Assembly (NCBI GenBank): GCA_964401135.1
Contig: CAYNXC010000001.1
Coordinates: forward strand, 210,264 to 274,263
Reading direction: 5' to 3'
Length of the DNA: 64,000 bases
Source: an uncultured Candidatus Saccharibacteria bacterium
GTDB lineage: Bacteria > Patescibacteriota > Minisyncoccia > Phycocordibacterales > UBA9988
In this document: positions 16,903 through 43,096 of the stretch, one piece after another
Position numbering within the stretch: the stretch's first letter is position 1
Layout: every line of letters begins with the position of its first letter
Made by a program: the position numbers and the translations under genes
Notes under the pieces: generated by a model
Told to the model about the DNA's origin: nothing
Databases searched by the model: none
What the model saw: the letters and a program-made list of their open reading frames with translations, nothing else

Positions 16903-17271
16903 ATGAATACAGACGCGCTAAAAAAGAAACTTCTCGCAGAAAAAGAGAGTTTGGAGTCCGAGTTGGGCTATATTGGAGATAAAGATGAACTAAATCCGGG
17001 CAATTACAACGCAAAACCAGCAGAAACAGATCCGATTGGCTTCCGTGATGAGGTTGCCGACCGGCTTGAAGAGTTGGATGAACGACTTGCAACCGAGCAA
17101 CCGCTTGAAGCTCACCTAAAAAATGTACGCGAGGCACTCAAGCGCATTGAAGAGGGAAACTACGGGATATGTGTGGTATGTGGTGAAAAGATAGAAGAAG
17201 ACCGACTCAGCGCCAGCCCCTCTGCTCGAACCTGTAAAGAACATTTGAGCTCAGACAGTAACGGCGGATAA
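16903..17271 (+). CDS. DksA/TraR-family zinc-finger protein
   Basis: Coiled-coil N-terminus plus a C-terminal CVVCGEKIEEDRL...TC zinc-finger-like motif. Confidence 0.55.
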   Translation: MNTDALKKKLLAEKESLESELGYIGDKDELNPGNYNAKPAETDPIGFRDEVADRLEELDERLATEQPLEAHLKNVREALKRIEEGNYGICVVCGEKIEEDRLSASPSARTCKEHLSSDSNGG

Positions 17272-17295
17272 CAGTAAATCTGCTACAATTGAGTC

Positions 17296-18843
17296 ATGCT
17301 TGCGAAGGTGCATAGCGCACAGGTGAGCGGGCTCTCGGCAGATATCATTGATGTAGAAGTAGATATCTCGCAGGGACTTCACTCTTTCTCTATTGTCGGA
17401 CTTCCCGACAAGGCGGTTGAAGAATCCAAAGATAGGATTACAGCCGCAATAAAAAACTCCGGCTTCAAATCGCCGCAAAAAGGGAACTTGAAGGTGATAG
17501 TCTCCCTCTCACCGGCGGATGTCAAAAAAGAGGGCTCCTCTTTTGACCTCGCCATTGCTCTCGCACATCTTCTCGCCACACGAGAGCTCTCTTTCAATCC
17601 GAAAGAGAAGCTCTTTTTAGGTGAACTTGCCTTAGACGGAGCATTGCGACCTTTGCGCGGCGCACTCATGATGGCGCAAAAAGCGAAGAGCGCCGGATTC
17701 AGCGGACTCTACCTCCCACAAGAGAATGCTCGTGAAGCGGCACTTGTAGAGGGGATACAGATATTCCCAGTGCGTACACTCAAGCAATTAGCTGAACATC
17801 TCTCGCCATTTCAAGAGCAGAGTACTAAGCCCTCCATCATCATCCCGCAAGAAAAAACAGAAATTATTTTTGAACAGTCCTCACACCTAACCGACTTTGC
17901 GGATGTCAAGGGGCAAGAGAGTGCCAAGCGTGGGCTTGAGATTGCCGCGGCTGGTGGACACAACATTGCCATGTCTGGCCCACCGGGGACAGGAAAGACG
18001 ATGCTTGCAAAAGCATTCATTGGTGTACTACCGCCACTCTCGTTTGAACATATTTTAGAAGTAACGGGCATACACTCCTCGGCAGGCATTCTACAAGAAG
18101 ATCTTGTTACTCATCCACCCTTACGATCCCCGCATCACACAGCATCCTATGTCTCTATGGTTGGCGGCGGTGCAAGCCCCCGCCCCGGAGAGATTACACT
18201 TGCGCATCGTGGAGTGCTCTTTCTTGATGAGTTCCCCGAGTTTGAGCGGCGCGTACTGGAGTCCTTACGGCAGCCACTAGAGGATCGTGTCATTTCTATT
18301 TCACGGGCAAAGGGAACGCTCTCATTCCCTGCTGACTTTATTCTAATTGCAACGATGAACCCATGCCCCTGCGGGAATAGGGGAGTACGCGGTAAGGAGT
18401 GCGTCTGTTCTCAATCCTCCATCATGAAGTATGAACGAAAAATTTCTGGTCCTATCATTGATCGTATAGATCTCTGGCTCTCTGTCCCACAAGTTGATCC
18501 ACAGAAATTAGGGAGCGACGCTGAAGGAGAGGGGAGTGCAAAAGTACGCGAGCGAGTTGCACGAGCACGCAGAGTACAAGAAAAGCGTTTCCGCGAAGTG
18601 CCGGGACTCTGCACCAACAGTGGAATGAGCGTGCGAGAGATCAAGCGCTTCTGCCCATTATCTGGAGAGGCTGCGGATGTACTCAATAGTTCTGCGACGC
18701 GACTCAATCTCTCGGCACGCGTCTACCATCGTCTCATCAAGCTTGCGCGAACAATCGCCGACTTGAGTGGAGCAGAGGACATTACTCCGGAGCACCTCCT
18801 TGAGGCCCTACAGTATAGGCCAAAAGAAAAAACAGGATATTAA
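17296..18843 (+). CDS. comM: YifB/ComM Mg-chelatase-like AAA+ ATPase
   Basis: N-terminal Lon-protease-like S5 domain, Walker A GPPGTGKT, Walker B LFLDEFPEF, C-terminal ChlI-like. Confidence 0.85.
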   Translation: MLAKVHSAQVSGLSADIIDVEVDISQGLHSFSIVGLPDKAVEESKDRITAAIKNSGFKSPQKGNLKVIVSLSPADVKKEGSSFDLAIALAHLLATRELSFNPKEKLFLGELALDGALRPLRGALMMAQKAKSAGFSGLYLPQENAREAALVEGIQIFPVRTLKQLAEHLSPFQEQSTKPSIIIPQEKTEIIFEQSSHLTDFADVKGQESAKRGLEIAAAGGHNIAMSGPPGTGKTMLAKAFIGVLPPLSFEHILEVTGIHSSAGILQEDLVTHPPLRSPHHTASYVSMVGGGASPRPGEITLAHRGVLFLDEFPEFERRVLESLRQPLEDRVISISRAKGTLSFPADFILIATMNPCPCGNRGVRGKECVCSQSSIMKYERKISGPIIDRIDLWLSVPQVDPQKLGSDAEGEGSAKVRERVARARRVQEKRFREVPGLCTNSGMSVREIKRFCPLSGEAADVLNSSATRLNLSARVYHRLIKLARTIADLSGAEDITPEHLLEALQYRPKEKTGY

Positions 18844-19120: not shown

Positions 19121-19507
19121 CAGTATCTTTCTCTCGTCGGAAATTATCTCGTATGGCACTACACGCGCGGGTATCACGACCTCGCAGAAAACGCGTACAA
19201 CCTGCTCTATTTCTTATACCACTTTTTTTCAATACGAGAGCTCCTGCGCACTTTTTTCTCTCCATGGAAAAATTTTCATGGAGGGCTCGCGAGTGTGCAA
19301 ACGAGTGCGGAGTATCTCTCACTCATTACTCTAAATAGTGTCCTCCGGATTGTTGGTATCATCCTCCGAAGTATTATTATCGCAACCGGTTGTGCATCCC
19401 TCATCATCGGAGGAGGACTCACTATACTTGCACTCCTCTTATGGGCTATCATCCCTGGCATTATTGTATTTTGTTTCATTACTGGATTCTCTCTCCTATT
19501 TTTGTAG
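19121..19507 (+). CDS. Hypothetical polytopic membrane protein
   Basis: 128 aa with three or four hydrophobic helices. Its stop is one nucleotide before the start of the next gene. Confidence 0.4.
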   Translation, partial: QYLSLVGNYLVWHYTRGYHDLAENAYNLLYFLYHFFSIRELLRTFFSPWKNFHGGLASVQTSAEYLSLITLNSVLRIVGIILRSIIIATGCASLIIGGGLTILALLLWAIIPGIIVFCFITGFSLLFL

Positions 19508-19508
19508 T

Positions 19509-21503
19509 ATGGCATACTCACTTACCGAGCAGATGAGTACAGGGTTACAGAGGGCTTTGCGCGCAGAGCGTATTGTTTCACCTAGAAAAAAACGCTTTCT
19601 TTTACTCGTTGCGGACTGCATCATTATTCTCTTTGTACTCTGTACCATACTCGGGTACAGTGACCCATCTTGGAAAGAGGCGCGTATGCCTCTCATTGGA
19701 GGACTCTTAATGGTAAGTTCTCTCATTCTCTCGTGGTATCTCGTAAAGAGTTACATCCATTCACTCCTTGGGCGAGTAGAAGAACATGAGGGACCCTGCT
19801 CAATTGAAGCGGGACGAATATTGTTTCATCATAAAAAAAATCTACTCCGTGCATGTATCACAAGTCCCGTGGGGCGCAAATTATTTTTACGCGCAGGTAT
19901 CGCTCAAGAAAAAATTTCAAAGCTTACACACGCATTTGTTTCAAAAGAACTTATTGAAGAGCATGAGGGACACATCACACTAAAAGAGATTGCGCGAGTG
20001 CTCATAGAAAAAAGTGAAGAACTCAGACAACTCTTAGAAGAAGTGGGGCTAACACAGAGTGAGTTTATTGGCACAGCAGAGTGGATAGAACGAGAGAGTG
20101 GATGGATAAGAGAAAGAGAGTTGTGGTGGAGGAGGGGAGCCTTAAATCGCATCCCTGGCATTGCGAAGGATTGGGCAAAAGGAGACACGCCCACACTTGA
20201 TCATTACGCACACGACATCGTTGTCCCTCCCACTGTACGCTTCATCACACACAACAGGGAACTGAGAAAAGTGGAGGAGATACTCATGAAAGAAAAAAAT
20301 GCGCATGTCCTCATTGTTGGGGAACATGAGAGAGCATACAGGAGTCTCACTATAGGACTTGCGAGAGAAATTGGGAGCGGACACATCGTGCCACAGCTAG
20401 AGTCATTCCGCGTGGTGATGCTAGAGTCCAATCTTTTGGCTCAGAGCTTCACAGAGGCAGAGGGATTAAAAAAAGTATGTACTATGATACGAGAAGAGTT
20501 ACAACGAGTACATAATATCATCCTCGTGATTGATGCTCCGCATAATAAGATCATATTAGAGTCTCTCCTTACCATAAGACACAGTAAGATACTCGTATGC
20601 GTGCATAAAGAACAGCATCGAGATCTCCCCATAACAGAAGAGGTACGAGCAGGGCTCCACACCATCGTTGTGGAACCTCTCTCTGAAGAAGGAGAGATTG
20701 CGCTTCTTGAAGCACAATTACTTCGTATAAGTACTAGTCGTTACATTGAGATAAACTATCCGGCAATCGTACTCCTCGCACGATACACGAGCGAAGAAAA
20801 TGGTATTGCGAAACTATCAGAGATCATTCCCTGGGCGCGCAAAAAAAACATTTTTCTCATCAACCGCACGGTTTGTGAACAGTTTCTAAAAGAGGCACGA
20901 CTTATGCCGGAAGATGAAAGGGATCATATCCGTGCTCATCGCCTTTCTGATATTACAAAAGAGATGAATGTTTGCGCTCCTGCACAAACACTAGCGATAA
21001 AAGAGATTTCGCAGACGATACAGAAAAAGTATGTGGACTCAAAAAAGAAAGGTGGGCCACTTACAAGACTCCTCTTCTTAGGGCCAGAAGAACAAAAGCT
21101 GGTAGTGGCACAAGCACTCGCGCGAACTCTCTTTGGTGGAGAAGAAGCATTCATACATATCTCTCTCCCACACTATACAGATGTCACAACAATATCCAAT
21201 ACGATGCGAGAATATGTAGCACATCGCCCTGCTGTACTTATCTATGTAGAACAATTTGAGCATGCGAAAGAGGAGTTACGAGAAGCTATACTCAATTTCC
21301 CCGACATAACACAAGAGGCAGTCCTGATTGTATCAAGCCGTGCAGGAGAGCGGCACATAGAGTGGCTCATTGAGACTGGAAAAAATATTGAAGAGGAGGC
21401 GGACGCAATTCTCTCTGGTATCGTCCACGATGGAGTACTCACACAAGAGACATTAGAGAGCTTTGACACCATCGCTCTCTTTAGCCCCACACTCAATAGC
21501 TAG
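19509..21503 (+). CDS. Membrane-anchored Clp (ClpA/B/C)-like protein with degenerate ATPase motifs
   Basis: Two N-terminal TMs. The first domain aligns to Clp NBD1 but has LIVGEHERAYRS in place of GEPGVGKT. The second aligns to NBD2 but has LFLGPEEQKL in place of GPTGVGKT and VEQFEHA in place of DEVEKAH. Confidence 0.6.
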   Translation: MAYSLTEQMSTGLQRALRAERIVSPRKKRFLLLVADCIIILFVLCTILGYSDPSWKEARMPLIGGLLMVSSLILSWYLVKSYIHSLLGRVEEHEGPCSIEAGRILFHHKKNLLRACITSPVGRKLFLRAGIAQEKISKLTHAFVSKELIEEHEGHITLKEIARVLIEKSEELRQLLEEVGLTQSEFIGTAEWIERESGWIRERELWWRRGALNRIPGIAKDWAKGDTPTLDHYAHDIVVPPTVRFITHNRELRKVEEILMKEKNAHVLIVGEHERAYRSLTIGLAREIGSGHIVPQLESFRVVMLESNLLAQSFTEAEGLKKVCTMIREELQRVHNIILVIDAPHNKIILESLLTIRHSKILVCVHKEQHRDLPITEEVRAGLHTIVVEPLSEEGEIALLEAQLLRISTSRYIEINYPAIVLLARYTSEENGIAKLSEIIPWARKKNIFLINRTVCEQFLKEARLMPEDERDHIRAHRLSDITKEMNVCAPAQTLAIKEISQTIQKKYVDSKKKGGPLTRLLFLGPEEQKLVVAQALARTLFGGEEAFIHISLPHYTDVTTISNTMREYVAHRPAVLIYVEQFEHAKEELREAILNFPDITQEAVLIVSSRAGERHIEWLIETGKNIEEEADAILSGIVHDGVLTQETLESFDTIALFSPTLNS

Positions 21504-22465
21504 AAAGGATTCTGTGCGCCGCGGACTTCGAAGTGGAGGTGGGCGCCAGTAGAGCGTCCAGTCATCCCGACAGTACCAATAGCGTCACCTTGCTCAACAA
21601 ACATACCTTGAGAGACAGTAATGCTATCCATATGCGCATAGAGTGTCTGCGTGCTGTTACCATGTTTAATGACCACATAGTTCCCGTAGCCGCCATTCCA
21701 GCCGCTTGAACGGCTCACGATGACTTGACCACTTGCGGCGGCCATGACTGTTGTACCAACAGGAGAGGCAAGATCAATACCATTGTAGCCATGTATGCCT
21801 TGAGAGCGCATAGAACGAGTAAGAGGTTTAATAAAGTAACCACTGACTGATTTCTTTGTAGAATTATCTGCAATAGGAATGGTAGATTGGCCAGAAGAAA
21901 CAGTAATGTCTCCATCGGGGACCATAATAAGCGCCCCTACGATAAGAGGGTGATGTACATCGATTCCGTTAAATTGAGCAATCTCTTCACTGTCGGCTCC
22001 ATAGCGTTTGGCGATACGGCTTACGGTATCTCCTTTTCTGACCGTATGACGGACTCCAGACACTGGCAAGATGACGAGAGTCTGATCAGGAGACACTTTT
22101 GATCCACTGGTAAGGTCATTTGCCCAGAGAATAGTTGAGGGAGAGACTCCGAACATCTCTGCAATTCCGCCAATTGTGTCCCCCTCGCGTACCACATAGA
22201 GACTGATTTGATCGCTTGGAGGAGCCTCCTTTATATCCGCAACAGTACCAAGGGGCCCCGAATCTGCGAGGAGAGCATTCCCCACAATAATCGTATCCCC
22301 ACCACCTCTTGCTGGATGTGGGTTTTGGTTTACTGCTGGTTGAAGGAGGGGTATGGTCTGGGAATTTAAAGATTGTGAGGCCAATGCCTCTTGTCTGCCG
22401 ACATAGACGAGTCGTTCTTTAATGAGTGAGAAAAAATCTACAAAGGTAGTGTTGTGATCCAACAA
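21500..22465 (-). CDS. Peptidoglycan hydrolase: two LysM domains plus M23 (LytM) metallopeptidase
   Basis: Two LysM repeats (YVVREGDTIGGIAEMFGV; HTVRKGDTVSRIAKRYG) and M23 motifs (HGYNGIDLA...GAHLHFEV). The TTG start lacks a signal peptide, and an in-frame upstream extension encodes a hydrophobic anchor. Confidence 0.75.
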   Translation of the reverse strand: MLDHNTTFVDFFSLIKERLVYVGRQEALASQSLNSQTIPLLQPAVNQNPHPARGGGDTIIVGNALLADSGPLGTVADIKEAPPSDQISLYVVREGDTIGGIAEMFGVSPSTILWANDLTSGSKVSPDQTLVILPVSGVRHTVRKGDTVSRIAKRYGADSEEIAQFNGIDVHHPLIVGALIMVPDGDITVSSGQSTIPIADNSTKKSVSGYFIKPLTRSMRSQGIHGYNGIDLASPVGTTVMAAASGQVIVSRSSGWNGGYGNYVVIKHGNSTQTLYAHMDSITVSQGMFVEQGDAIGTVGMTGRSTGAHLHFEVRGAQNPF

Positions 22466-22654: not shown

Positions 22655-25024
22655 TCAACTGCGCAGACGGGTAAGGATGGCGGCTTCAACACTTGTAAGA
22701 TCTCTCCCATATGAGAGGCGGGAAAGTTCTTTTAATTTTTCTGCAACTTCTTGAGATCCTCTCTCGGTAGTGCGCGTTTGGATAGCGAATGCAGGTGAGG
22801 GCTCCCCGTTCACCAAGAGCTTCATAATTGCGTGACGATTTTCTGTACTCATGAGATCAGATGCAGAAAAGGTTGGCTCTACATACTGCTTTAAATACTC
22901 GGCATCTTCAGCCCCCACACGGAAGAGTGCGAGTGACCCCACATTTCCGAAGACTGCCGCCTTGATGGTATCCGAAAGCTGGGCAATAAACTGATGTGCA
23001 AGAGTAAGTGAGAGATGATACTTGCGTGCTTCGGAGAGAATAACCGCAATTGAGTCTGTGGTAAAGTTTTGAAACTCGTCAATGTAGAGATAAAAATCTG
23101 TTCGTGATTGTTCCGACATATCACCTCGAGCAAGCGCGGCCAAAAGAATGCGTCCGGTAATAATCATCCCCAAGAGACCTGCATTAAGATCTCCAATCTT
23201 CCCTTTTGAGAGATTAACGAGTAAAATCTTCTTCGTATCAAGCACTTCCCTAAAGTTAAATGACGATGAAGTTTGCCCAATAATAGGTCGAATGTAATCG
23301 TTTGCAATAAAATTATTAAACTTCGAGGTAATGTAGGGGGTCATATTCGCAAGCCCCTGTTCTCCAGATGTCTTCACTGCCTCTTTTTCCCAAAAATCTA
23401 TGACAACCGGGTTGAGGATGCGAGAGAGCTTACGCTTTCTAAACTCCGGATCGGTAAAGATGCGCGGCACCTCAATCAAAGTGGCGGGTTCATTCTTCAT
23501 ATCCTCCATAAGAAGAAGGAGTGCATTACGCATATACTGCTCAAACATTGGCCCCATTGTCTCCGCCGTAAAAAGACGGTTAAAAATAGACTGGAGTTCG
23601 TTCACAATAAAGGTTCGTTCCTCCGGCTTTTCTGTCTGATGTTCCAACATATTAAGCCCTAGTGGACGCTCGCGATCTCCGGGGTCAAACACGATGACAT
23701 CATTAATACGGCTCTTTGGCACGACGCTCAAGAGGTCGGTAATAAGATCGCCATGCGGGTCTATCACACAGAGGCCGTTCCCAGCCTCAATATCTTGTGC
23801 CGCCATAGTGCGCAGAAGAGAGCTCTTCCCCGTACCTGTCTGGCCAATGAGGTAGAAGTGCCGTAGACGATCAGTGGTGGAGAGGCGCACCGCCTGTGCA
23901 TCGCCACGAAACAGGTTCTCACCAATGGTGACTCCTTCTTGGGAAAGATTTGCGGGGGGAGCCGACTCTCGTGTGCGCAACCAACTTACCCGAGGGATGT
24001 CTAAGGAGTTGGTAGGTAAGTGGAAGATACTAGCCAACTCTTCTGTATTCAAATACATACTCTCGGCATCTCTCCACTCTCTGAATGAGTAACGATACAA
24101 GAGCGACTGTGTGTCGCGAGGAAGCACCGTAACAAAGCCGTTATGTTTTGTGGTAGTGAATTGGGAAAAAGACCCCGCAATAGAAGTAAAGAGGTCATGT
24201 GCCCTATCTTCATTCCCGCCAGAAGTTACAATACGGGCAATCACAGAAAGGAGGGGACTGCCCGCCTTCCGCTCAAGCATAGCAACAGATTCTGTATCAA
24301 CGAGGGATGCGGGTTGAATCTCTACCTTCTTACTCGGTGTTGCGGTAAGCTCTTCATGGAGCTCTTTTAGCCCAAAACTAACTCCTTTCTTTACATCTTC
24401 AAGCTTTACTCCTTTTCTTAGTTGCTCAAGTGCTGATACGAGGCGCTTCTTCGCATTTTGATCAGCGGGGCGGATAAGAAACTGCAGTGAGGCACCGTCC
24501 CCTACACTCTCTAGGTGAGATAAGGTGCTCACGATTGGCGTAAAGGTGTCTAGCGAGGACTCACGATATGTCCGGATGGGGAGGATAAACGACTCTTTGA
24601 GTGAAAGATACCCCGCAACCGCAATACCATGCGGATTGAATACTGAATAGTCGTTCACACGCTCAATGCGTGCCTCAGGGTACAGGCCTCGCACCTGATC
24701 ACTTACATACGCTGCACTCTCACGAGGCACTGATGTATAGAAATAAATTTCCTCTCCAATGTGATGTACCGAGACCTCAAACACAACCGGCCTCCCGATG
24801 GCAGAGAGTGAAGAGAAGAGCTGTTCAGAGAGCGCAATATCTCGGAGTCTTCTCTCTGCATCTCCTCCCGTACCACGAGGCACAGAGATGCGTAAGAGTA
24901 CATACGAGAGGGTAGAGAGGCGCGGACTTCTAAACCACTGAAAGAGGAGTACCAGCATCACCGCGCACGAGAGTGCAGCAATCCCTCCACCAGCTATCCA
25001 CAACAGGCTAGGTAATGAGACCAT
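22655..25024 (-). CDS. VirD4/TraD/TraG-like type IV coupling protein-family ATPase (FtsK/HerA superfamily), membrane-anchored
   Basis: N-terminal TM, Walker A IGQTGTGKSSLL, CVIDPHGDL, Walker B-like YLYIDEFQNF, and LAHQF. A long roughly 380-aa domain precedes the P-loop, which is atypical. Confidence 0.6.
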   Translation of the reverse strand: MVSLPSLLWIAGGGIAALSCAVMLVLLFQWFRSPRLSTLSYVLLRISVPRGTGGDAERRLRDIALSEQLFSSLSAIGRPVVFEVSVHHIGEEIYFYTSVPRESAAYVSDQVRGLYPEARIERVNDYSVFNPHGIAVAGYLSLKESFILPIRTYRESSLDTFTPIVSTLSHLESVGDGASLQFLIRPADQNAKKRLVSALEQLRKGVKLEDVKKGVSFGLKELHEELTATPSKKVEIQPASLVDTESVAMLERKAGSPLLSVIARIVTSGGNEDRAHDLFTSIAGSFSQFTTTKHNGFVTVLPRDTQSLLYRYSFREWRDAESMYLNTEELASIFHLPTNSLDIPRVSWLRTRESAPPANLSQEGVTIGENLFRGDAQAVRLSTTDRLRHFYLIGQTGTGKSSLLRTMAAQDIEAGNGLCVIDPHGDLITDLLSVVPKSRINDVIVFDPGDRERPLGLNMLEHQTEKPEERTFIVNELQSIFNRLFTAETMGPMFEQYMRNALLLLMEDMKNEPATLIEVPRIFTDPEFRKRKLSRILNPVVIDFWEKEAVKTSGEQGLANMTPYITSKFNNFIANDYIRPIIGQTSSSFNFREVLDTKKILLVNLSKGKIGDLNAGLLGMIITGRILLAALARGDMSEQSRTDFYLYIDEFQNFTTDSIAVILSEARKYHLSLTLAHQFIAQLSDTIKAAVFGNVGSLALFRVGAEDAEYLKQYVEPTFSASDLMSTENRHAIMKLLVNGEPSPAFAIQTRTTERGSQEVAEKLKELSRLSYGRDLTSVEAAILTRLRS

Positions 25025-25391
25025 TATGTTTTAACTCGTCATAGAGCTTATCCGTAAGTGCATCATGGAACGCATCCATCAAAAAAGGTCGTTCTTGTTT
25101 AATAAGTGCAATAGTTTTCTTCATACCCAGTTCAGGGATGCGTGTAATGTAGGCATTCAGCTCGGTAAGTGAATCATCATCCATTGCATCAAGGTAATGA
25201 GCGGTTGGGGAGCTCTGTATTATAGGCACCCCTCCTCCACTAAAAATCTCCTCGTGTAATACTTGGCGGACCAAGTCCTTCTCTTTACTCACCCCCTGCT
25301 CTGTTTCTATCGCATTTCTGCGTGATTCAATTGCCTTACTCAACTCAAGCAGTTCAGCAGGTACTGCTTCTGGCGAAAAATGTTCTGGCAT
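25008..25391 (-). CDS. Hypothetical protein
   Basis: Protein-like 128 to 133-aa ORF overlapping the start of the coupling-ATPase gene by about 17 nt. No motif recognised. Confidence 0.35.
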   Translation of the reverse strand: MPEHFSPEAVPAELLELSKAIESRRNAIETEQGVSKEKDLVRQVLHEEIFSGGGVPIIQSSPTAHYLDAMDDDSLTELNAYITRIPELGMKKTIALIKQERPFLMDAFHDALTDKLYDELKHNGLIT

Positions 25392-25448
25392 ACGCAAATT
25401 ATAGCGCACTTCAGAGAGGGCAAAAAGGACGCTATACTAGAGACCGTC

Positions 25449-27359
25449 ATGAAATCATTGGAAGGATTAAATGAACAACAGCGGAAAGCGGCAGAGATGA
25501 CAGAAGGACCGCTTCTCATTGTTGCAGGAGCAGGCGCCGGAAAGACAAAAACACTCACTCACCGCATTATGCGACTCATGGAGAACAGGGTAGCGCCCGA
25601 GTCTATACTTGCCGTTACCTTTACCAATAAAGCGGCAAAAGAGATGAGTGATCGCGTCCGGCTCTTAACCCCAGAAGGAAAAAGCATTCCGTTTATGAGC
25701 ACCTTCCACGCACTCTGCGTGTATATACTCCGTGAGAACGCATCAAAGATTGGATATCCAAGATACTTCCACATTGCAGATAAAGAGGATTCCCTCTCCC
25801 TCGTCAAGCAAGCAATGGATGAGCTTGGTATCTCACAAAAAGAACACGAACCAAGGAAAATTTTGTCCGCGATCTCACGAGAAAAGAACGCTATGGTTTC
25901 CCGTGTTACCTATGACGAGAAAGCACGCGACCCCTTCAGGAGAAGGGTCGCACAAATCTGGCGTCGCTATGCGGATCTGTGTAAAAAGACACATATGCTA
26001 GACTTCGATGATCTCGTGGGGAAGACGGTGGAGCTATTCCGTAGTGACCCTGAGACCTTGGGACAGTATCAAGATCGCTGGCGCTACATACATATCGACG
26101 AATACCAAGACACAAACACTGCCCAGTATGAGTTGGTATCACTCCTTGCGAAAAAATACAAAAATATTGCCGTCGTGGGAGACGCTGACCAATCTATTTA
26201 TGGGTGGCGAGGTGCCGACTTTACCAATATGCTCAACTTTGAGCGCGACTACCCTGGAGCCGCGGTGGTAATACTGGAAGAAAACTATCGTTCAACACAA
26301 ACCATTATCGCAGCCGCAAATGAGGTGATACAAAAAAATCAGGAACGAACAGAAAAATCACTCTTCACTAAAAATAAAGTTGGCGAAAAGATAGGACTAA
26401 TCACCGCGCTCCATGAGACAGGGGAAGCCCGTGAGGTGGCAAAAAAAGTCCGAGAAGCAATCCACTCTGGTGGTGTGCGAGCATCGGATATTGCAGTACT
26501 CTATCGGGCAAACTTTCAATCTCGCGCACTGGAAGAAGCTTTCCTCTCTCTCGGCATACCCTACCGCGTACTGGGAACTCGCTTCTTTGAACGCAAAGAA
26601 GTAAAAGATATGCTCGCATACCTGCGCGCAGCACTAGATACGGAAGATATAGAGAGTGTGAAGCGTATTATCAATACTCCCAGACGAGGCTTGGGGAAGG
26701 CCGCCGTGGCAAAAATTTTTTCTGGGGCACAGAGTGCCTTAACAGGAACTGCGGCACGGGGTGCTCAACAATTTTTTTCTCTCCTTTCGCATATTAAAGA
26801 GAAGGTAGAGCAAGTACCACTCTCTGAAGTAATGAAATATGTACTTATAGAGAGTGGATGGGAAAGAGAACTACGCGAGGGAGGTGATGAGGGAGAGGAA
26901 CGGTTAGAAAACTTGCGAGAATTAGTAACTATCGCGAACGGGTACGACGCACTCCCGAGAGAGGAGGGGATAGAGCGCTTTCTCACCGATGCGGCACTCC
27001 TCTCTGCAGAAGAGGAAGAGGAGGAGAAAGGGAAGGAGGGAGTGCGGATGATGACTGTGCATGCCGCAAAAGGGCTAGAATTTAACTATGTATTTGTGGT
27101 TGGACTTGAGCAAGACCTATTCCCTCACGCACGCATCTCGGGTGATGGGCGTAATGCGGAAGAGGAGCGAAGACTCTTTTATGTTGCAATTACTCGTGCA
27201 CGGGAGAAATTGTATCTCTCGTACGCACAGACAAGAACCATCTACGGCTCACGGAGAATCAATCTCCCCTCCGAATTCCTCCTTGATATCAGCGACGATC
27301 TTATAGACATGGAGGCGATACACCCCATGGATTCCGAGGATGTGATAGAGTGGGATTAA
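25449..27359 (+). CDS. pcrA: ATP-dependent DNA helicase UvrD/PcrA family
   Basis: Helicase motifs I (AGAGAGKT), II (DEYQDTN) and V/VI (MTVHAAKGLEF; VAITRA). Confidence 0.85.
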   Translation: MKSLEGLNEQQRKAAEMTEGPLLIVAGAGAGKTKTLTHRIMRLMENRVAPESILAVTFTNKAAKEMSDRVRLLTPEGKSIPFMSTFHALCVYILRENASKIGYPRYFHIADKEDSLSLVKQAMDELGISQKEHEPRKILSAISREKNAMVSRVTYDEKARDPFRRRVAQIWRRYADLCKKTHMLDFDDLVGKTVELFRSDPETLGQYQDRWRYIHIDEYQDTNTAQYELVSLLAKKYKNIAVVGDADQSIYGWRGADFTNMLNFERDYPGAAVVILEENYRSTQTIIAAANEVIQKNQERTEKSLFTKNKVGEKIGLITALHETGEAREVAKKVREAIHSGGVRASDIAVLYRANFQSRALEEAFLSLGIPYRVLGTRFFERKEVKDMLAYLRAALDTEDIESVKRIINTPRRGLGKAAVAKIFSGAQSALTGTAARGAQQFFSLLSHIKEKVEQVPLSEVMKYVLIESGWERELREGGDEGEERLENLRELVTIANGYDALPREEGIERFLTDAALLSAEEEEEEKGKEGVRMMTVHAAKGLEFNYVFVVGLEQDLFPHARISGDGRNAEEERRLFYVAITRAREKLYLSYAQTRTIYGSRRINLPSEFLLDISDDLIDMEAIHPMDSEDVIEWD

Positions 27360-29439: not shown

Positions 29440-30297
29440 ATGAATAAGTTTGCCGCTGGTCTACTCACGGCCTTTGTTTGTGTACTCGCTTTTCTATGGT
29501 GGTTTGGTGGGAAAGTAGAACGGGGAGAAATTGGCAATGCGCTCTACACCGCAGAGAAAAAGGATGCAAAAGCCGAGATTGCCGACAGCGACAAGGATGG
29601 CCTGCGAGATTGGGAAGAACGACTCTGGGGTACTGACATACATTCAACAGATAGTGATGGAGACGGAACAGGGGATGGTGAAGAGGTCGCCCTCGGGAGA
29701 GATCCCAAGAAAAAGTCACCAGGAGATACCCTCTCAAATAAGGAGGACATTGCCCGTGCCGCAATTCACGAGAGTGTGAGCGAGGGAGGGGGCACCATAA
29801 TACCCACAACGGAGGATTTAAAACCAACACTTACTTACACCGCATTTGATATCCATACAGTGGACTCAAAGGATCAGGCTTTTCTCATAAACTATGGGGC
29901 AAGTTTGCGCACAAACTTACGGCCACTCAGCACAGGATTTGGCTCTGCAGCGAGTAATACTATTGCAGTGCTCTCAAAAAAAGATTCGGGGAGTATAGAA
30001 CGGATTAAGGCAGAAGAAACACTACTTATTACAATTACCAAAGAGTTACTCGTTCTTGATGTGCCAGAGTCAGCGAGCGTAATCCACCTTAAACTCCTCA
30101 ATTCACTCACAGAATTAGCAGAGCTCGCGTATACTATGGAGCAAGTGGAGCGTGAACCTGCGTTTGCGCTCGCCAGTGCTGAGGCATACGAAAAGAAAAA
30201 GCCCGAACTCTTGGCAGTGCTCGGTGAGATAAACGCATATTTCAAAGGAGAGGGGGTACGCTTTGATTCAAAAAATGCCGTCACTATAAGTCTATGA
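29440..30297 (+). CDS. Membrane-anchored protein with thrombospondin-type-3-like Ca-binding repeats
   Basis: N-terminal anchor, then DSDKDGLRDWEE and DSDGDGTGDGEE (DxDxDG repeats). Confidence 0.5.
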   Translation: MNKFAAGLLTAFVCVLAFLWWFGGKVERGEIGNALYTAEKKDAKAEIADSDKDGLRDWEERLWGTDIHSTDSDGDGTGDGEEVALGRDPKKKSPGDTLSNKEDIARAAIHESVSEGGGTIIPTTEDLKPTLTYTAFDIHTVDSKDQAFLINYGASLRTNLRPLSTGFGSAASNTIAVLSKKDSGSIERIKAEETLLITITKELLVLDVPESASVIHLKLLNSLTELAELAYTMEQVEREPAFALASAEAYEKKKPELLAVLGEINAYFKGEGVRFDSKNAVTISL

Positions 30298-32390
30298 AGG
30301 TACGAGAACATACACTCATTATAATCTCGCTCGGAATCGCCTTTCTTTCAATCTTTTTTGTAGGGTCGCTCACGGTACAGGCAGAGGAACAAAGGGCAAA
30401 CGATAACAGTCTTATTCAAGCTGGTTTTGATTACGGCCCACAAGAAACAATTGCTCAAGAAATTATTAATGGTCGTGCCGAGAACGACCTCAAAGAGTGT
30501 GTCGCAGAAACAGGGAATACTACCTCGGGAGGATCATCCGGTGGCGACTATGTTCCCGTGCATGAAGTGGGGGAGCTCCTCTCGCTCACCACGGGCATCA
30601 ATAAAAAAGTAACGCACGGCAACGATCTCTTGGTAGATATCTGTATGCACTTAAAGGCGATACGACGCGTGCAGTATGTAATGGAGGCACAAGTGCTCTA
30701 CCATGACCCCAATGCGCGCAAGGCCGCGGCAAAGGCAATCTTTGAACACAAACAGTCCTTCATAGAGAACAACATTAAGAAGGGTTATGAAGTTTCTCCC
30801 GCACTCCTCGGTACCAGCGGGACAGAGAGTAGTTCGGAAAATAAGCAGCCGCTCTATGTGGCAAATATGGACGAGCACCTCAAGTCTGTACGCAGTGAGG
30901 CCTACGGAGTTTTTGATGCTGATTTAACCACACTCAACTCTTCAGCAAATCCAAATATCTTCACCGATAGCATCCGCAAAAATCTTGCAGTCTCTGAAGC
31001 AGCAGGGGAGAGTGAGGAATCACGATTGAGGACATCTCTCGGGTCTACTATCACGAAAGATGAATTCAACGCCTTTACCAACGACTTCTCACAAGGTGGG
31101 TGGGATATGTGGCTCAAGGTACTTGATCCACGCAACAACTACAGAGGCTCAAAAATTCTTGCACAGGATGAGCTCAATTATAGAAAGTCACTCGCAGAGA
31201 CAAACGCGAGAGAAGAAATTGCATCAGCAAAAGGATTTCTCCCTGTTCGTGAATGTGCCACAGAAAACTGGGTAACAACTGCTGATGGGAAGAAGTACTG
31301 TAGAAAGTGGACGGTCAAAACTCCTGGGACCATCAACGAGAGTTACCTTGCAGACATTGTCGGGTCAACTCTGCGTCAAAATGAGATAGCAGATCAGTCG
31401 GTGGAAGATTTTAGCAAGACAGAGTTTGCACGCGTAGAGAGTGAGTTAACTAACCTAGAAAAGGTGGGGAAGACGGAGGACAGAGTAGCAGTACAGAGCA
31501 TCTTCCAAAAAGAGGATCCATGCCCCGGACCAGGGCCTTGTGAAGATTCTGGCTGGGTGGGGAGTAGTGCAGGAGGAGGGATAGGCGGAGGAGGAGGTAT
31601 CACTAACCCAACAACACTCGCGCAACAAATTTATAACAATAAAAATACATTACCAGGTCTCCCTGATGGATTACAATCAATCTTCAACATCCCTGGACTC
31701 TCACAGGAAGCAATCATCAAACAGATTACAGAGTGGCTTAAAAAAGATACCAATGGAAATGGTACTCCCGACTACTTAGAGAGTGAGCCCCCGAAGATTG
31801 TCTTTACTGCCGAAACCAACTCCCTTGCAATTGCGGCCGATGCGGATAGAAACACCACAAAACTTACCTGGAATGCGTGGAATGCAACGGAGTGCAGTGC
31901 GGTCAACGACTGGTTGAGTGCAAGTACGATTACAAAATCGCGCGATACCAAGCTCGCCCCAACAGGGACGCTCACCGTACGACACCCATACACCTTTACC
32001 GTGAGTCTCTCTCGGAGTCCTGACTTAAGTGGATGGAGCACGGGGAGAGTAACGAGCGTGGCGGATCAATTTCTCCTCTCTCAAAAAACAACCATTGATC
32101 TCTCTGGTCTTACTGCCGCGTCGGGGTTAAGCTTCACCCTCTCACTTGGCACCAATGCCAACCTCACTGTAGTGGGAAATAGTTCAAATCAAAATCTGAC
32201 ACAGTCATTCAAAGAAGCGTATAACACACTCTCACAGACAGATGTGAATTATTCTGCTTTGCGTGGTAAGTACGCATTCACTTTTGATATCTCAAACAAA
32301 AAAATCTACATCAGTGCCAATCCGATATACAAAATCTCTTGCACGAATGCGAACAGTACAGAATATAAAGATGTAACGATTACGCGATGA
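30294..32390 (+). CDS. Large secreted or surface hypothetical protein (698 aa), T4SS-cluster associated
   Basis: Signal peptide, a Gly-rich stretch GGGIGGGGGITNP, and no recognisable family. ATGA overlap with the previous gene. Confidence 0.5.
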   Translation: MKVREHTLIIISLGIAFLSIFFVGSLTVQAEEQRANDNSLIQAGFDYGPQETIAQEIINGRAENDLKECVAETGNTTSGGSSGGDYVPVHEVGELLSLTTGINKKVTHGNDLLVDICMHLKAIRRVQYVMEAQVLYHDPNARKAAAKAIFEHKQSFIENNIKKGYEVSPALLGTSGTESSSENKQPLYVANMDEHLKSVRSEAYGVFDADLTTLNSSANPNIFTDSIRKNLAVSEAAGESEESRLRTSLGSTITKDEFNAFTNDFSQGGWDMWLKVLDPRNNYRGSKILAQDELNYRKSLAETNAREEIASAKGFLPVRECATENWVTTADGKKYCRKWTVKTPGTINESYLADIVGSTLRQNEIADQSVEDFSKTEFARVESELTNLEKVGKTEDRVAVQSIFQKEDPCPGPGPCEDSGWVGSSAGGGIGGGGGITNPTTLAQQIYNNKNTLPGLPDGLQSIFNIPGLSQEAIIKQITEWLKKDTNGNGTPDYLESEPPKIVFTAETNSLAIAADADRNTTKLTWNAWNATECSAVNDWLSASTITKSRDTKLAPTGTLTVRHPYTFTVSLSRSPDLSGWSTGRVTSVADQFLLSQKTTIDLSGLTAASGLSFTLSLGTNANLTVVGNSSNQNLTQSFKEAYNTLSQTDVNYSALRGKYAFTFDISNKKIYISANPIYKISCTNANSTEYKDVTITR

Positions 32391-34447
32391 AGCACTGCTC
32401 ACGGATAATTGCGGGGACACTCTTTTTTCTCACTATTTTTGTTTTGTTTTTTGGTGTAGTCCAGACAGTAAATGCTCAAGCCCCTTTACCAGTAATTCCT
32501 GGGTATAACGCTCCTGACACTCCTGAATGGCATGAGATAGCAAGAAAACAAAACACAATGGTAACAGAGTCAGTGGGAGGAGAAGGGGGATTGCTTTCAT
32601 TTCTTCTTCCCAGTTTCAGTGATTTAACAAATTGGATTGGGGATGTTATTTCAACCGCACTCATTTGGCTTGCTGGCAACTTCCTTTGGTTGGGCGGCAA
32701 ACTTCTGGATGCTTCCGTCCAATTTAATGTCTGCGATATGAAGAGTCTAATGGGGACGGCTGTTGTCTCCCAGGGGTGGCTTATCGCTCGTAATATCGCT
32801 AACTTCTTCTTCATCTTCATCCTCCTCTACATTGCCATCTCTATTATTTTAAATGTTGGAGAAAGTCAAAAGAGGTTAATTGTATGGGTCGTGATCATTG
32901 CGCTCGTCATTAACTTTAGCGCCGTGCTTACGCGCTTTGTTATTGATGTATCTAACATCTTTGCCTATCAATTCTATTCAAGCATTGTGGGGGGAGGGGA
33001 TCCGTGCACCGAAGAGAGTCGTAATACAACAGGAATTTCTGCTAATTATATGACTGCATTGAAGTTTCAGAAATATGCAGAAGAAGAATCGAGCTCTGAC
33101 TCTCTCTATAAGGGTATTGAAGGATTTGGAGCAAAGACAGTGACAGGAATCATGACGGCAACATTTATTACCATCACTGCATGGAGTTTTATTATTGTCG
33201 CAGCACTAATGATTATCCGTTCCGCGGTGTTAATGATTCTTATTGTGCTCTCACCAATCGCATTTATGGGATTTATCCTACCACAAATAAAACAGGTAAT
33301 GACTAAGTGGTGGGGCGCACTTATTAGTCAAGCCTTCTTTGCGCCGGTGTACCTCTTCTTTGCCTACATCACCCTCGTCCTCGCTAAGGGTACTGTGGCA
33401 CTTTTTTCACAAGAGACTTTTGCCTCTGGATCTGAACAGATATTCAAAATCTTTTTGCAGTACTCAATCCTCATTACACTCATTGTCGTAGGACTCATCC
33501 AAGCAAAAAAGATGAGTGCCGCCGGCGGAGGGGCAGTGCAAGCGCGAGTACTTAAGTCTCTTGATTGGATGCGCGGACAAGCAACAGGAGCCATGGGACG
33601 CAATACAGTGGGGAGACTCGGCCGTCAAATCGCTGATAGTGATCGTGTTAAGAGATGGTCATCAGGCTCTGGTGGTATCTTAAAGAAAGCCGCGGGGATT
33701 CCTATTAAGAATGCAAGTGCTTCTATGGCTGGAGGGAAGTATGGTGGCGGGAAGAGTTACGATGATATTGTTAAGAAGCAAATTGAACGGGCAAAGGGAA
33801 TTGAAGACCCTGCAGATAAAGCGCGCGTCTTGGGAGGAATGAGTACTGCCGCGCGCAGAGAGTACTTTGATAGTCTCTCTGACCGTGAGAAAGCAGAGAC
33901 ACTTGATGCGGCAAAGACTCTCGGGGGCTTCACGCAAGCACGGGTAGAAGGACAGCGTGAGCGACTTACCGCAGAGCAGGTTGAAAAAATGGAGAAGGCA
34001 GGTGGAGAGGGGAAGGATGCTACACGCAAAAAAGAGCAATCCGCAGATATTGAAGCAGTGGTTGGTAATACAGAAAAAGGTATAGCTGGTCTACCAAGAG
34101 GTTCAGACGAGAGAAGAATTAAGATTGAAAAGGTGGTCACAGGACTTAAAGATGATGAGGGACGCAAACTGGCAAAGATTGTTGAAGATGCGGACACGAC
34201 CGACATTGCCACAATGTACGGGAAGATGAACCCACTTGATCTTGTAGACTTAATGGGGAAGGCTAAACTCTCAAATGATGCTAAAGAAAAACTACGAAAG
34301 GGGATGTTGGATCTTGGAGAAGATCACCCAACATTTATTGAGCTACACAGTAATCCAAAATTAAAGATCCTCTTTGGTAGTACACCAATAAACGCACCTA
34401 GGTCAGCACCGACTCCTGCTAATCCTCCAGGAACCACTACAGCATGA
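32387..34447 (+). CDS. VirB6/TrbL-like polytopic membrane protein (T4SS inner-membrane component) with a long hydrophilic C-terminal tail
   Basis: Signal peptide, then at least five or six TM helices in a TrbL/VirB6-like arrangement, then a charged roughly 250-aa tail. Start overlaps the previous gene. Confidence 0.5.
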   Translation: MKHCSRIIAGTLFFLTIFVLFFGVVQTVNAQAPLPVIPGYNAPDTPEWHEIARKQNTMVTESVGGEGGLLSFLLPSFSDLTNWIGDVISTALIWLAGNFLWLGGKLLDASVQFNVCDMKSLMGTAVVSQGWLIARNIANFFFIFILLYIAISIILNVGESQKRLIVWVVIIALVINFSAVLTRFVIDVSNIFAYQFYSSIVGGGDPCTEESRNTTGISANYMTALKFQKYAEEESSSDSLYKGIEGFGAKTVTGIMTATFITITAWSFIIVAALMIIRSAVLMILIVLSPIAFMGFILPQIKQVMTKWWGALISQAFFAPVYLFFAYITLVLAKGTVALFSQETFASGSEQIFKIFLQYSILITLIVVGLIQAKKMSAAGGGAVQARVLKSLDWMRGQATGAMGRNTVGRLGRQIADSDRVKRWSSGSGGILKKAAGIPIKNASASMAGGKYGGGKSYDDIVKKQIERAKGIEDPADKARVLGGMSTAARREYFDSLSDREKAETLDAAKTLGGFTQARVEGQRERLTAEQVEKMEKAGGEGKDATRKKEQSADIEAVVGNTEKGIAGLPRGSDERRIKIEKVVTGLKDDEGRKLAKIVEDADTTDIATMYGKMNPLDLVDLMGKAKLSNDAKEKLRKGMLDLGEDHPTFIELHSNPKLKILFGSTPINAPRSAPTPANPPGTTTA

Positions 34448-34956
34448 ACACATTAACACCAGATCAGCTCCGTGAGATATACAACTCGCTCCCTGAGGAT
34501 CTTCAAGACGCAATGGGTTCGGCACAGACCTCAGAGACAGTACGCCGTATCAGCAACAACTACGGGCTCTCACTAGATCAAATGGGTGAACTTACAGAAG
34601 AGATTGGCCTCACTATGCTTGGTGTAAACACGCTTGAAGATATGCCAAAAAATATTGCGCTTCGACTTGGCACAGATCTCCCTATGGGAACTGCTATTTA
34701 TAGAGATATTAATGGGAGTATCTTCTTAAGGGTGCAGGGGAGCCTAAAGCAAGTACAGGAGCTCCGCGAATCCAAACCTCTACTTACCTACTCCATACAA
34801 AAGGAGAAGATTGTTCCACCTTCCTCACCAACCCCAGCCCCCGTACAAGCACGAGAACAAGCCCTCCCTCAAACACCACACACTGTACTAACTTCGCCAC
34901 ACACCCCAATGCCCAACAAGTCTGCAAATGATCCGTATCGTGAAATAATAGAGTAA
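34444..34956 (+). CDS. Hypothetical cytoplasmic protein, T4SS-cluster associated
   Basis: 170 aa, overlaps both neighbours by a few nucleotides. No motif recognised. Confidence 0.4.
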   Translation: MNTLTPDQLREIYNSLPEDLQDAMGSAQTSETVRRISNNYGLSLDQMGELTEEIGLTMLGVNTLEDMPKNIALRLGTDLPMGTAIYRDINGSIFLRVQGSLKQVQELRESKPLLTYSIQKEKIVPPSSPTPAPVQAREQALPQTPHTVLTSPHTPMPNKSANDPYREIIE

Positions 34957-35387
34957 TGGATTTCCAAGTACCACAATTTATTGAGATAGAGGACAAAATA
35001 TTCGGCCCACTCACCTTCAAACAGTTTGTCTACATTGCCGGTGGAGCGGGGGCGGCATTTGTGCTGTACTCAATTCTCTCTCAATTTCTTCCTTCAGCCA
35101 TCGCAATCATCATCGCTGTCCCCCTTGTTGGCTTGGGACTTGCGCTCGCATTCTATAAAATAAACGAGCGGCCACTCATTTACCTTGTACAAGCCGCGGT
35201 GCTCTATCTTCTTCGCGGAAAGCTGTACCGATGGAGAAAAGAAGAGTATCAGTTAGGAGAAGACCGGGTGAGTCTCCCTTCCGCGCAAAAAAATCCTCTA
35301 CAGGCAACGCCTGTTCGCGGCGACCGTCTCTCTGGTATTGCATGGAATTTAGATGTTCGCAAAGAGATCCCTACCGAACATACATAA
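34956..35387 (+). CDS. PrgI/VirB3-like small membrane protein
   Basis: KIFGPLTFKQF followed by two TM helices. Size and pattern fit the PrgI family of Gram-positive-type T4SS. Confidence 0.5.
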   Translation: MDFQVPQFIEIEDKIFGPLTFKQFVYIAGGAGAAFVLYSILSQFLPSAIAIIIAVPLVGLGLALAFYKINERPLIYLVQAAVLYLLRGKLYRWRKEEYQLGEDRVSLPSAQKNPLQATPVRGDRLSGIAWNLDVRKEIPTEHT

Positions 35388-35390
35388 GCT

Positions 35391-36050
35391 ATGGCAACAA
35401 AACAAGCAAACGCTTCACAAAAATTTCTCCCTATCCGCGAAATACGCGATAGTGTTGTGGTACTCTCTGATGGTGGAATGCGTATGGCCTTAATGGCCTC
35501 GTCTCTTAACTTTGCACTGAAATCACAAGACGAACAGATGGCAATACTACTCCAGTTTCAAAATTTTTTAAATGCTCTTGATTTTCATATTGAGTTTTTC
35601 ATAGAATCTCGCCGCTTGGACATACGACCCTACCTGCGCATCCTTGAGGACCGTATGAAGGAGCAGGTCAACGATCTGGTAAAAATACAAACCAAAGAGT
35701 ATCTGGACTTTGTGCGCAGTTTTACTGAGAGTACCAATGTGATGTCTAAATCATTCTTTGTGGTAGTGCCCTACAGTCCTCCAATCATCCAGAACTCAAG
35801 TGGATTTTTTGGGAAAATGTTTAATCGGGATAAAACTAATACTCAAGCTCTAGATGAGAGTGCATTTGAAGAACATCGGACACAACTTGAACAGCGTTCG
35901 TATGTCGTTGCACAGGGACTTGCCGCGTTCGGAGTACGATCAGTCATCCTTGGTACCGATGAGCTGGTAGAGCTCTATTACAAATTATTTAACCCCGGAG
36001 AGAAGGATGCGCCACAACCGGGAAGCTACACCAACAATGCCTCTGTTTAA
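35391..36050 (+). CDS. VirB4-like N-terminal domain as a separate ORF (possible split or frameshifted virB4)
   Basis: Immediately precedes, and overlaps in another frame, the VirB4 ATPase ORF. Size of about 219 aa matches the VirB4 N-terminal domain. Confidence 0.45.
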   Translation: MATKQANASQKFLPIREIRDSVVVLSDGGMRMALMASSLNFALKSQDEQMAILLQFQNFLNALDFHIEFFIESRRLDIRPYLRILEDRMKEQVNDLVKIQTKEYLDFVRSFTESTNVMSKSFFVVVPYSPPIIQNSSGFFGKMFNRDKTNTQALDESAFEEHRTQLEQRSYVVAQGLAAFGVRSVILGTDELVELYYKLFNPGEKDAPQPGSYTNNASV

Positions 36051-38198: not shown

Positions 38199-38217
38199 AT
38201 CCACAACACACCAAGGT

Positions 38218-39246: not shown

Positions 39247-39248
39247 CT

Positions 39249-40496: not shown

Positions 40497-40504
40497 ATAG
40501 AACT

Positions 40505-42464: not shown

Positions 42465-42471
42465 ACAGTGA

Positions 42472-42804: not shown

Positions 42805-42815
42805 ACACAGTATGG

Positions 42816-42950: not shown

Positions 42951-43096
42951 ACGAATGGAGTATACAGAATGTATATACTTTTTTCAAGAGAATATACTTA
43001 TCCACCATAATCCACTCCTTATAAACATCTTGGATAGGTTTGTAGTTTAGTACTAAGAGTACTATAATCGCAACATAAAAATAACGAGCGGACCCT

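Follow-up and report, generated by a model that had tools for sequence, protein, structure and literature searches.

To which family does a 789-amino-acid (aa) ATPase belong that combines the motifs of a type IV coupling protein (T4CP) with a long region ahead of its P-loop, and is its gene tied to the cluster of type IV secretion system (T4SS)-like genes or to the divergent pcrA/uvrD helicase gene close by? The question is raised by a 64,000-nucleotide stretch of DNA, hereafter the window, from an uncultured Candidatus Saccharibacteria bacterium (assembly GCA_964401135.1, contig CAYNXC010000001.1, positions 210,264 to 274,263 of the forward strand). Judged by its sequence, the ATPase belongs, as a distant member, to the coupling proteins of the VirD4/TrwB type. 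The region before its P-loop is a domain of a catalogued family, DUF8128, and its predicted fold resembles that of the VirB4 N-terminal domain (NTD). Coordinates of the gene, its parts and its neighbours are given in Table 1.

Family assignment of the ATPase

The ATPase open reading frame (ORF) is no chance ORF, because more than 7,149 homologous clusters (90% identity) were found at E ≤ 1e-5, a very large Patescibacteria family, and the identical protein is present on at least 13–14 public contigs. Its nearest named relative, at 60% identity, comes from a Candidatus Vogelbacteria metagenome-assembled genome. A sequence-only reading of the window had described a 789-aa ORF with the motifs GQTGTGKS, IDEFQNF and AHQF and one N-terminal transmembrane (TM) helix, and motif positions, hydropathy and a full-length AlphaFold2 (AF2) model (pLDDT 85) agree with it. 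Both Walker A and Walker B are intact, as in a P-loop NTPase of the FtsK-HerA superfamily. All catalytic-type ATPase positions are invariant in 50 homologues, among them G394, Q395, T396, G397, G399, K400 and S401 of Walker A and D649, E650 and F651 of the Walker B region. In alignments SEARKY pairs with ...GRKAG... of TrwB, and AHQ with ...GLQS..., so that the SEARKY/AHQF residues are candidate arginine-finger and sensor residues, with R667 the candidate Arg finger.

Two T4CP families pass their Pfam gathering thresholds over residues ~362–688, namely TrwB_AAD_bind (PF10412; 27.1 bits vs 20.5) and T4SS-DNA_transf (PF02534; 24.9 bits vs 20.1). Across 50 family members, TrwB_AAD_bind matched 50, T4SS-DNA_transf 39 and TraG-D_C 30. 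The VirB4-type families AAA_10 (PF12846), P-loop_TraG (PF19044) and TraC_F_IV matched none of the 50 but did match the genuine VirB4 of the window. When a profile of the family was searched against all PDB sequences, TrwB (2.8e-7) and DotL (5.7e-4) led, HerA followed at 0.007 or weaker, and VirB4 was not found. In the model the nucleotide-binding domain carries an all-alpha insertion placed as in TrwB, and the overall fold resembles that of TrwB. The VirD4/TraD-like assignment of the sequence-only reading is thus upheld by both Pfam families and by the best solved-structure matches. It had named, as the result that would speak against it, best matches in non-T4SS families such as DUF87/HerA together with no co-occurrence with VirB4 across genomes, and this outcome did not arise. 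DUF87 has the nominally highest Pfam score (29.7 bits), confined to 75 residues (374–448) round the P-loop. NCBIfam HerA reached 17.4 bits against a cut-off of 970, and the hallmarks of HerA, a HAS-barrel N-domain (in the model) and a NurA-type nuclease partner (in Pfam searches of the neighbours), were not found.

The canonical two-TM anchor directly before the nucleotide-binding domain is not present; one TM helix is followed by the ~300-residue DUF8128 domain. Arg residues come after this helix, so by the positive-inside rule the remainder of the ATPase would be cytoplasmic. Walker A had been placed about 380 aa into the protein, later than in canonical VirD4. The long extension is real, but the motif begins at residue 394, slightly later than said. 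In an alignment the P-loop of TrwB lies ~55–65 residues into the deltaN70 crystal construct, which corresponds to about residue 130 of the full protein, and the ~250 additional residues that the ATPase has before Walker A are real.

The DUF8128 domain and its predicted VirB4-like fold

The pre-P-loop region is annotated as Pfam PF26449, DUF8128, in the precomputed annotation of the identical protein and of all homologues listed. A phmmer search with residues 1–365 against 1.84 billion representatives gave 1,071 clusters at E ≤ 1e-3, and the best 150 of those 1,071 are of full-length size or shorter, the shorter ones apparently fragments. The domain contains a disordered loop at residues 215–238. 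The sequence-only reading had taken the long pre-P-loop domain as a peculiarity of this gene, possibly an adaptation to a relaxase-free system. This did not survive: DUF8128 is family-wide, and it also occurs beside Replic_Relax on Bacillus plasmids and on haloarchaeal plasmids.

Structure prediction, which had been proposed for this region, was carried out on the domain alone (residues 36–362; pLDDT 84, pTM 0.82). The top 14 Foldseek matches of the model were chains of TrwK, the VirB4 of R388 (E 8e-8 to 3e-5, probability 1.0, TMq 0.44–0.50), and no other match scored better than 3e-3. Because the VirB4 C-terminal domain alone (4ag5) and other RecA-like folds are absent from the Foldseek matches listed, as is Hcp, the match would by elimination fall on the VirB4 NTD. 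The DUF8128 profile gave only chance-level matches to PDB sequences, so that no sequence homology to VirB4 was detected. An hhalign comparison of DUF8128 with a Patescibacteria VirB4 profile returned a probability of 0.2, a weak negative since the VirB4 alignment is of low diversity (Neff 1.9). Because sequence-level similarity was not found, the kinship between DUF8128 and VirB4 is at the level of the fold only.

Literature searches on DUF8128/PF26449, and on a VirB4 NTD with a coupling protein, returned nothing. The VirB4-NTD fold of DUF8128, its reach into the conjugation clusters of Bacillus and haloarchaea, and the dedicated small partner gene described below appear to be undescribed in the searchable literature.

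Homologues on Bacillus and haloarchaeal plasmids

A tblastn search of the ATPase against 72,556 plasmids yielded 316 records, and in 20 of these the match extends over 80% or more of the query, with most of DUF8128 included. On the Bacillus subtilis plasmid NZ_CP032854.1 the homologue is WP_121549396.1, an 886-aa 'DUF87 domain-containing protein' with 25% identity over residues 91–769 (E 1e-36). It is encoded by the first gene of an operon that continues with Replic_Relax, proteins resembling TcpC and TcpE, and an AAA_10 (VirB4/TcpF-type) ATPase of 848 aa, and a second Bacillus plasmid shows a similar arrangement. In haloarchaeal plasmids an ORF of its own, ~375 aa long, encodes the DUF8128-like part. 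In the Natrinema plasmid NZ_CP084475.1 (10028..14240) the end of this ORF overlaps by 11 nt the start of a T4CP gene that matches TraG-D_C, TrwB_AAD_bind and T4SS-DNA_transf. Directly ahead of the pair is the gene for a 'conjugal transfer protein' of 1,093 aa, and a pilin gene lies 3.9 kb upstream of the pair. From its make-up, the haloarchaeal ORF pair reads as a natural split form of the fused bacterial DUF8128 + T4CP architecture.

Homologues thus stand in conjugation clusters of Bacillus and of haloarchaea, which makes DUF8128 + T4CP an old architecture, linked to T4SSs, that belongs to the conjugation systems of monoderms and archaea. The placement of Patescibacteria VirB4 inside the MPF-FATA class agrees with this in a recent survey of the phylum (Quinonero-Coronel et al. 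2025, PMC12102498).

A small conserved partner gene

The sequence-only reading had pointed to a small overlapping ORF at the 5′ end of the ATPase gene. Its coordinates are confirmed and it is a real, conserved gene, also called independently in public gene calls. The product, here small127, is a soluble, acidic protein of 127 aa (pI 4.8) that has no Pfam domain. Since its gene ends 17 nt inside the ATPase gene, past the ATG at 25024, translation of the two is likely to be coupled. Scans for promoters and terminators around the ATPase operon gave nothing beyond shuffled expectation that would define transcription units.

We sampled the neighbourhoods of ATPase homologues as 80 species-level loci from GTDB genomes, in which ORFs were called and clustered and the window's neighbours were sought with tblastn. 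A small127 homologue stands immediately upstream of the ATPase homologue in 27 of these loci (iterated hidden Markov model (HMM), E 1e-20 to 1e-39). Altogether 51 homologues of this fast-evolving protein were found. Several are on contigs equal in size to contigs with ATPase homologues, and in one case the two genes have adjacent locus tags (D4Q79_01685 and D4Q79_01690). A 127-aa ORF upstream of the Bacillus homologue did not align with small127. By analogy with known coupling-protein partners, small127 is probably a dedicated adaptor or regulator of the ATPase.

Distribution and context subtypes

For 2,918 of 3,035 Patescibacteria genomes, the survey counts 5,713 VirD4-type homologues (PMC12102498). 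There are about two ATPase paralogues per genome, and three context subtypes were seen among our 80 loci. In subtype A (~790–840 aa), which includes the window gene, the small127 family precedes the ATPase gene. Subtype B (~815–870 aa) is preceded by an unlike family of 150–216 aa in 13 loci (L017, L020, L021, L033, L035, L036, L044, L049, L055, L056, L064, L066 and L076), and usually followed by two further conserved genes of ~220 aa and ~520–600 aa. An hhalign comparison of small127 with this 150–216-aa family gave a probability of 0.2, the two being either unrelated or diverged beyond detection. Subtype C (~910–960 aa) has ~100 more residues ahead of DUF8128 and lies, for example in L029, L030, L041, L048 and L050, in a block of small genes that is strongly conserved and has one for a 423-aa protein among its members. 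A set of 255-aa ORFs beside the long-type homologues ('family 0') proved to be a single-linkage artefact of one fused ORF in L078. The window gene is an ordinary member of a catalogued family, the VirD4-type Patescibacteria homologues having been published and the N-domain having a Pfam accession.

Genomic setting in the window

A T4SS-like cluster, to which the sequence-only reading had also referred, lies near the ATPase gene, with VirB4, VirB6, PrgI and pilin genes. The virB4 gene stands at a distance of 11 kb, or 13 genes, both in the window and in relatives with as little as 60% identity. Published descriptions place the T4SS near dnaA in Patescibacteria (Quinonero-Coronel et al. 2025, PMC12102498), and the arrangement in the window agrees. 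GC content falls to 0.30–0.38 across 42000..46000 round dnaA and dnaN, where the replication origin probably lies. The part of the window's ORFs that was scanned contained no relaxase, and relaxases are described as generally absent from Patescibacteria in the same survey (PMC12102498).

The VirB4 of the window is far better conserved than the ATPase, the best 120 homologues being 76–100% identical against 53–94% for the ATPase. At 622 aa it is short for its family. A 219-aa ORF (35391..36050) without a Pfam match overlaps the virB4 start; it could be the separate 'TrsD-like' N-terminal VirB4 piece that is mentioned in PMC12102498.

The divergent gene is confirmed as pcrA/uvrD by Pfam matches, and ~57 bp separate the start codons on the two sides, that of small127 and the probable pcrA start. 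The latter, ATG 25449, yields the 636-aa protein found in public gene calls. Relatives with 85%, 63% and 60% identity retain the order M23 peptidase–ATPase–small ORF, with the divergent string pcrA-ksgA-DUF192 up to the T4SS cluster, and the full arrangement is kept only in this close lineage as sampled (85–60% identity). Across the 80 species-level loci, pcrA adjoins the ATPase homologue in two and the M23 peptidase is found in two. Because the pairing is kept in close relatives only and pcrA sits in a housekeeping string, it is local, lineage-specific gene order and no evidence for mechanism. The functional partnership that the sequence-only reading had seen in it was therefore rejected as a conserved link.

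Table 1. Position of the ATPase gene, its parts and its neighbours in the window
Feature	Coordinates	Strand	Basis or remark
789-aa DUF8128 + VirD4/TrwB-type coupling ATPase (T4CP-like)	22655..25024	-	ATG start
Sole N-terminal TM helix, residues 4–32	24929..25015	-	Kyte-Doolittle scan and AF2 model
DUF8128 alpha/beta domain, residues ~36–340, predicted VirB4 NTD fold	24005..24919	-
Walker A GQTGTGKS, residues 394–401	23822..23845	-	Motif positions computed; TrwB alignment
All-alpha insertion in nucleotide-binding domain, residues 467–596	23237..23626	-	Six helices in model; TrwB_AAD_bind match covers 384–686
Walker B region IDEFQNF, residues 648–654	23063..23083	-	Aligns to TrwB Walker B region
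SEARKY (664–669) and AHQF (676–679)	22988..23035	-	TrwB alignment; invariance
AHQF alone, residues 676–679	22988..22999	-	Computed motif position
small127, acidic soluble partner (127 aa)	25008..25391	-	ATG 25391, TAG stop 25010..25008
LysM + M23 peptidase	21500..22465	-	Pfam; next gene downstream, same strand, 189-bp gap
pcrA/uvrD helicase, divergent neighbour	25449..27359	+	Pfam UvrD-helicase 5e-87, UvrD_C 2e-75
T4SS-like cluster	29440..41758	+	Pfam; several ORFs without family match
VirB6/TrbL-like gene	32387..34447	+	Pfam
PrgI/VirB3-like gene	34956..35387	+	Pfam
VirB4, 622 aa	36007..37875	+	Pfam
T4SS_pilin-domain protein	39249..40496	+	Pfam
dnaA	43097..44440		1.3 kb past end of T4SS-like cluster
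dnaN	44658..45752

Other features of the window

Genes for a DksA/TraR-type zinc-finger protein and a ComM/Mg-chelatase-like protein (entry 16903..18843 (+), 51889..53607 (-)) are syntenic with the ATPase region in relatives, and farther along the window is a gene for a T2SSE ATPase of the PilB type that has an MshEN domain. No Pfam match was obtained for the ORF at 19338..21503 (+), which is of 664–721 aa and runs convergently towards the gene of the M23 peptidase. Its positional counterparts in relatives have AAA_2 and ClpB_D2-small domains, and in this genome the ORF may encode a Clp-type ATPase that has degenerated. At 61528..61600 (+) ARAGORN reports a 'tRNA-Stop' with anticodon tta, and Rfam a strong tRNA (71 bits). 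Canonical numbering by eye (7-bp acceptor, 4-bp D stem, 5-nt variable loop) puts TTT at positions 34–36, which makes this a tRNA-Lys(UUU) with the ARAGORN register one base off; a suppressor tRNA is unlikely. Because the tRNA overlaps the listed start of the SpoU methylase ORF (61510..62088), the true start of that ORF is probably downstream of the tRNA.

Proposed role

We suggest, with somewhat better than even confidence, that the protein is an ATPase anchored in the membrane, that it belongs to the VirD4/TrwB lineage of coupling proteins and that it hands a substrate to the T4SS-like machinery. From the N to the C terminus it would consist of one TM helix, a cytoplasmic DUF8128 domain and a RecA-like nucleotide-binding domain into which an all-alpha part is inserted. 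It would form a ring at the membrane, as other coupling proteins do, use ATP through K400, D649/E650 and the candidate Arg finger R667, and pass its substrate to the machinery encoded 5–17 kb away. In R388, the VirB4 NTD touches VirB3, VirB8 and a second VirB4 subunit. By analogy, DUF8128 could dock the ATPase on the VirB3/VirB6/VirB4 inner-membrane platform, or on VirB4 itself, in place of the two-TM anchor. The adaptor or regulator role of small127 would resemble that of CagZ for Cag-beta or of IcmS/IcmW for DotL.

Several observations weigh against a coupling role. The Pfam T4CP scores exceed their thresholds by a few bits only, and the strongest profile in any library is PADLOC mad8 (52 bits, E 1.6e-14, residues 388–690). 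The sequence-only reading had proposed to look for co-occurrence with the T4SS-like cluster across related genomes, and the picture is mixed. It is kept in relatives at 85–60% identity, but VirB4, VirB6 and PrgI were detected within 10 kb in 0 of the 80 more distant, species-level loci by tblastn, a search that less conserved components could escape and a distance just beyond which the window's own virB4 lies. According to PMC12102498, only 148 of the 5,713 Patescibacteria t4cp homologues are near virB4 (within 20 genes), a minority into which the window ATPase falls, and more genomes carry a T4CP homologue (2,918) than carry VirB4 (2,417). The same survey, citing Wang 2023, states that the t4cp homologue of Southlakia epibionticum, which may not be of the DUF8128 type, is dispensable, the T4SS genes being essential. 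In their own report, Wang et al. found no recognisable coupling protein in the T4SS of that species. Finally, a relaxase that would serve a DNA substrate is not known, and the substrate could be protein or DNA.

Alternative explanations

Some of these points suit a different kind of motor, an exapted, T4SS-independent or import-directed DNA translocase that, like CedD, would move DNA or another polymer at or across the membrane without a relaxase. The three-part architecture is shared by CedD, on which DNA import depends (bioRxiv 10.1101/2024.09.27.615246), and the NCBIfam profile of CedD (NF053655) gives a weak match to the ATPase (E 3.1e-5). Also in favour of a translocase, T4CP homologues exceed VirB4 in distribution, are for the most part not linked to it and can be dispensed with in S. 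epibionticum (PMC12102498). The ~2 paralogues per genome in three context subtypes, and the ComM and PilB-type ATPase genes in the window, point the same way. We nevertheless regard it as unlikely: the CedD match covers the P-loop region alone, at 22.8 bits against a cut-off of 600, the plasmid homologues stand inside conjugation clusters, and the ATPase gene stays near the T4SS cluster in the close lineage. Moreover, Saccharibacteria competence relies on ComEC and type IV pili (Wang 2023). Less probable again is that the protein serves in assembly as a second ATPase of the VirB4 type, a paralogue of VirB4 that has diverged, a reading to which the N-domain fold, matching the VirB4 NTD alone, and the shortness of the window's own VirB4 might lead. 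The ATPase portion speaks otherwise, since the three VirB4-type families recognise the true VirB4 but none of the 50 family members, and the PDB profile search returned TrwB and DotL. The hhalign result for DUF8128 against Patescibacteria VirB4 gives no support either. The Bacillus cluster, furthermore, has a separate AAA_10 ATPase besides the homologue, which occupies the T4CP position there and in haloarchaeal clusters, in Bacillus beside a relaxase-like gene.

A helicase of repair or anti-phage defence, of the HerA, DptH or MADS type, is suggested by the DUF87 score and by the mad8 match, yet we consider it very improbable. The DUF87 match is limited to the surroundings of the P-loop and the N-domain is VirB4-like, with no HAS-barrel. 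The eight-gene mad operon of MADS was not found around the ATPase, whose neighbours are housekeeping or T4SS genes, with no NurA, Sir2, methyltransferase or other defence genes among the housekeeping ones. A near-universal, syntenic gene in a reduced genome also fits a variable defence island poorly. The MADS preprint does not describe the domains of mad8. Hardly more credible is a relaxase-free DNA-transfer module made up of the ATPase and the divergent PcrA/UvrD. ICEBs1 employs PcrA in conjugative DNA processing, and such a module could account for the closely spaced divergent genes and for a pairing retained at 85%, 63% and 60% identity. The adjacency in 2 of 80 loci argues against it, as does the ordinary housekeeping look of a UvrD/PcrA gene that is followed by ksgA and DUF192, and the conserved neighbour of the ATPase is the small upstream ORF, not pcrA.

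The coupling-protein reading can be extended to a broader proposal, which we put forward as a speculation that is open to considerable doubt. DUF8128 ATPases of Patescibacteria and of Bacillus and haloarchaeal plasmids would then be an undescribed lineage of T4SS motors that kept a VirB4 docking domain, intermediate between VirB4 and VirD4, and in Patescibacteria would work independently of a relaxase with an acidic adaptor. By analogy with CedD, such motors might import host-derived polymers rather than export DNA, which is one possibility.

The Patescibacteria account for a large part of the diversity of bacteria, and in the single species tested, epibiotic growth requires their T4SS-like apparatus. 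Near-universal 'T4CP' homologues with a VirB4-type N-domain give a handle on the question of T4SS docking, and the dedicated small partner gene of subtype A offers an experimental one. An architecture common to Bacillus and haloarchaeal conjugative plasmids bears on the divergence of VirD4 and VirB4. For the window itself, the PcrA pairing is removed as a false lead and the gene is filed in a known family.

Comparison with known systems

Canonical VirD4/TrwB T4CPs (TrwB of R388, DotL, Cag-beta; PF02534, PF10412, PF12696) have two TM helices, whereas the window ATPase has one and, unlike them, carries an extra ~300-residue cytoplasmic DUF8128 domain between anchor and P-loop. It is also chromosomal, without a relaxase partner and with a conserved small acidic upstream partner, and its sequence similarity to them is marginal (25–27 bits). 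The T4CP homologues of PMC12102498 are closer, coming from the same phylum, where they are detected by VirD4-type HMMs, with a T4SS near dnaA and relaxases absent. The accessible part of that survey gives counts and positions and does not discuss the N-domain, its VirB4-like fold, the partner gene or the paralogue subtypes.

VirB4 (TrwK of R388; PDB 7o41-7o43, 8rtb, 8rtd) shares the predicted N-domain fold with the window ATPase, but the ATPase matches no VirB4-type family, no sequence similarity between the N-domains is detectable, and a genuine VirB4 coexists in the cluster. CedD of the Sulfolobales is likewise chromosomal and without a relaxase, and unites an ATPase of the FtsK/HerA superfamily with a TM segment and a domain like the VirB4 NTD; that ATPase, however, is classed in the HerA/VirB4 clade, and the CedD NTD resembles part of the VirB4 NTD only (bioRxiv 10.1101/2024.09.27.615246). 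The Bacillus and haloarchaeal homologues differ from the window ATPase in being plasmid-borne, longer (886–1,031 aa) and encoded inside conjugation clusters, adjacent to Replic_Relax in Bacillus, and small127 was detected with the window ATPase but not with them. What these homologues have in common with the window ATPase is the colinear arrangement of a DUF8128-like part and a T4CP ATPase.

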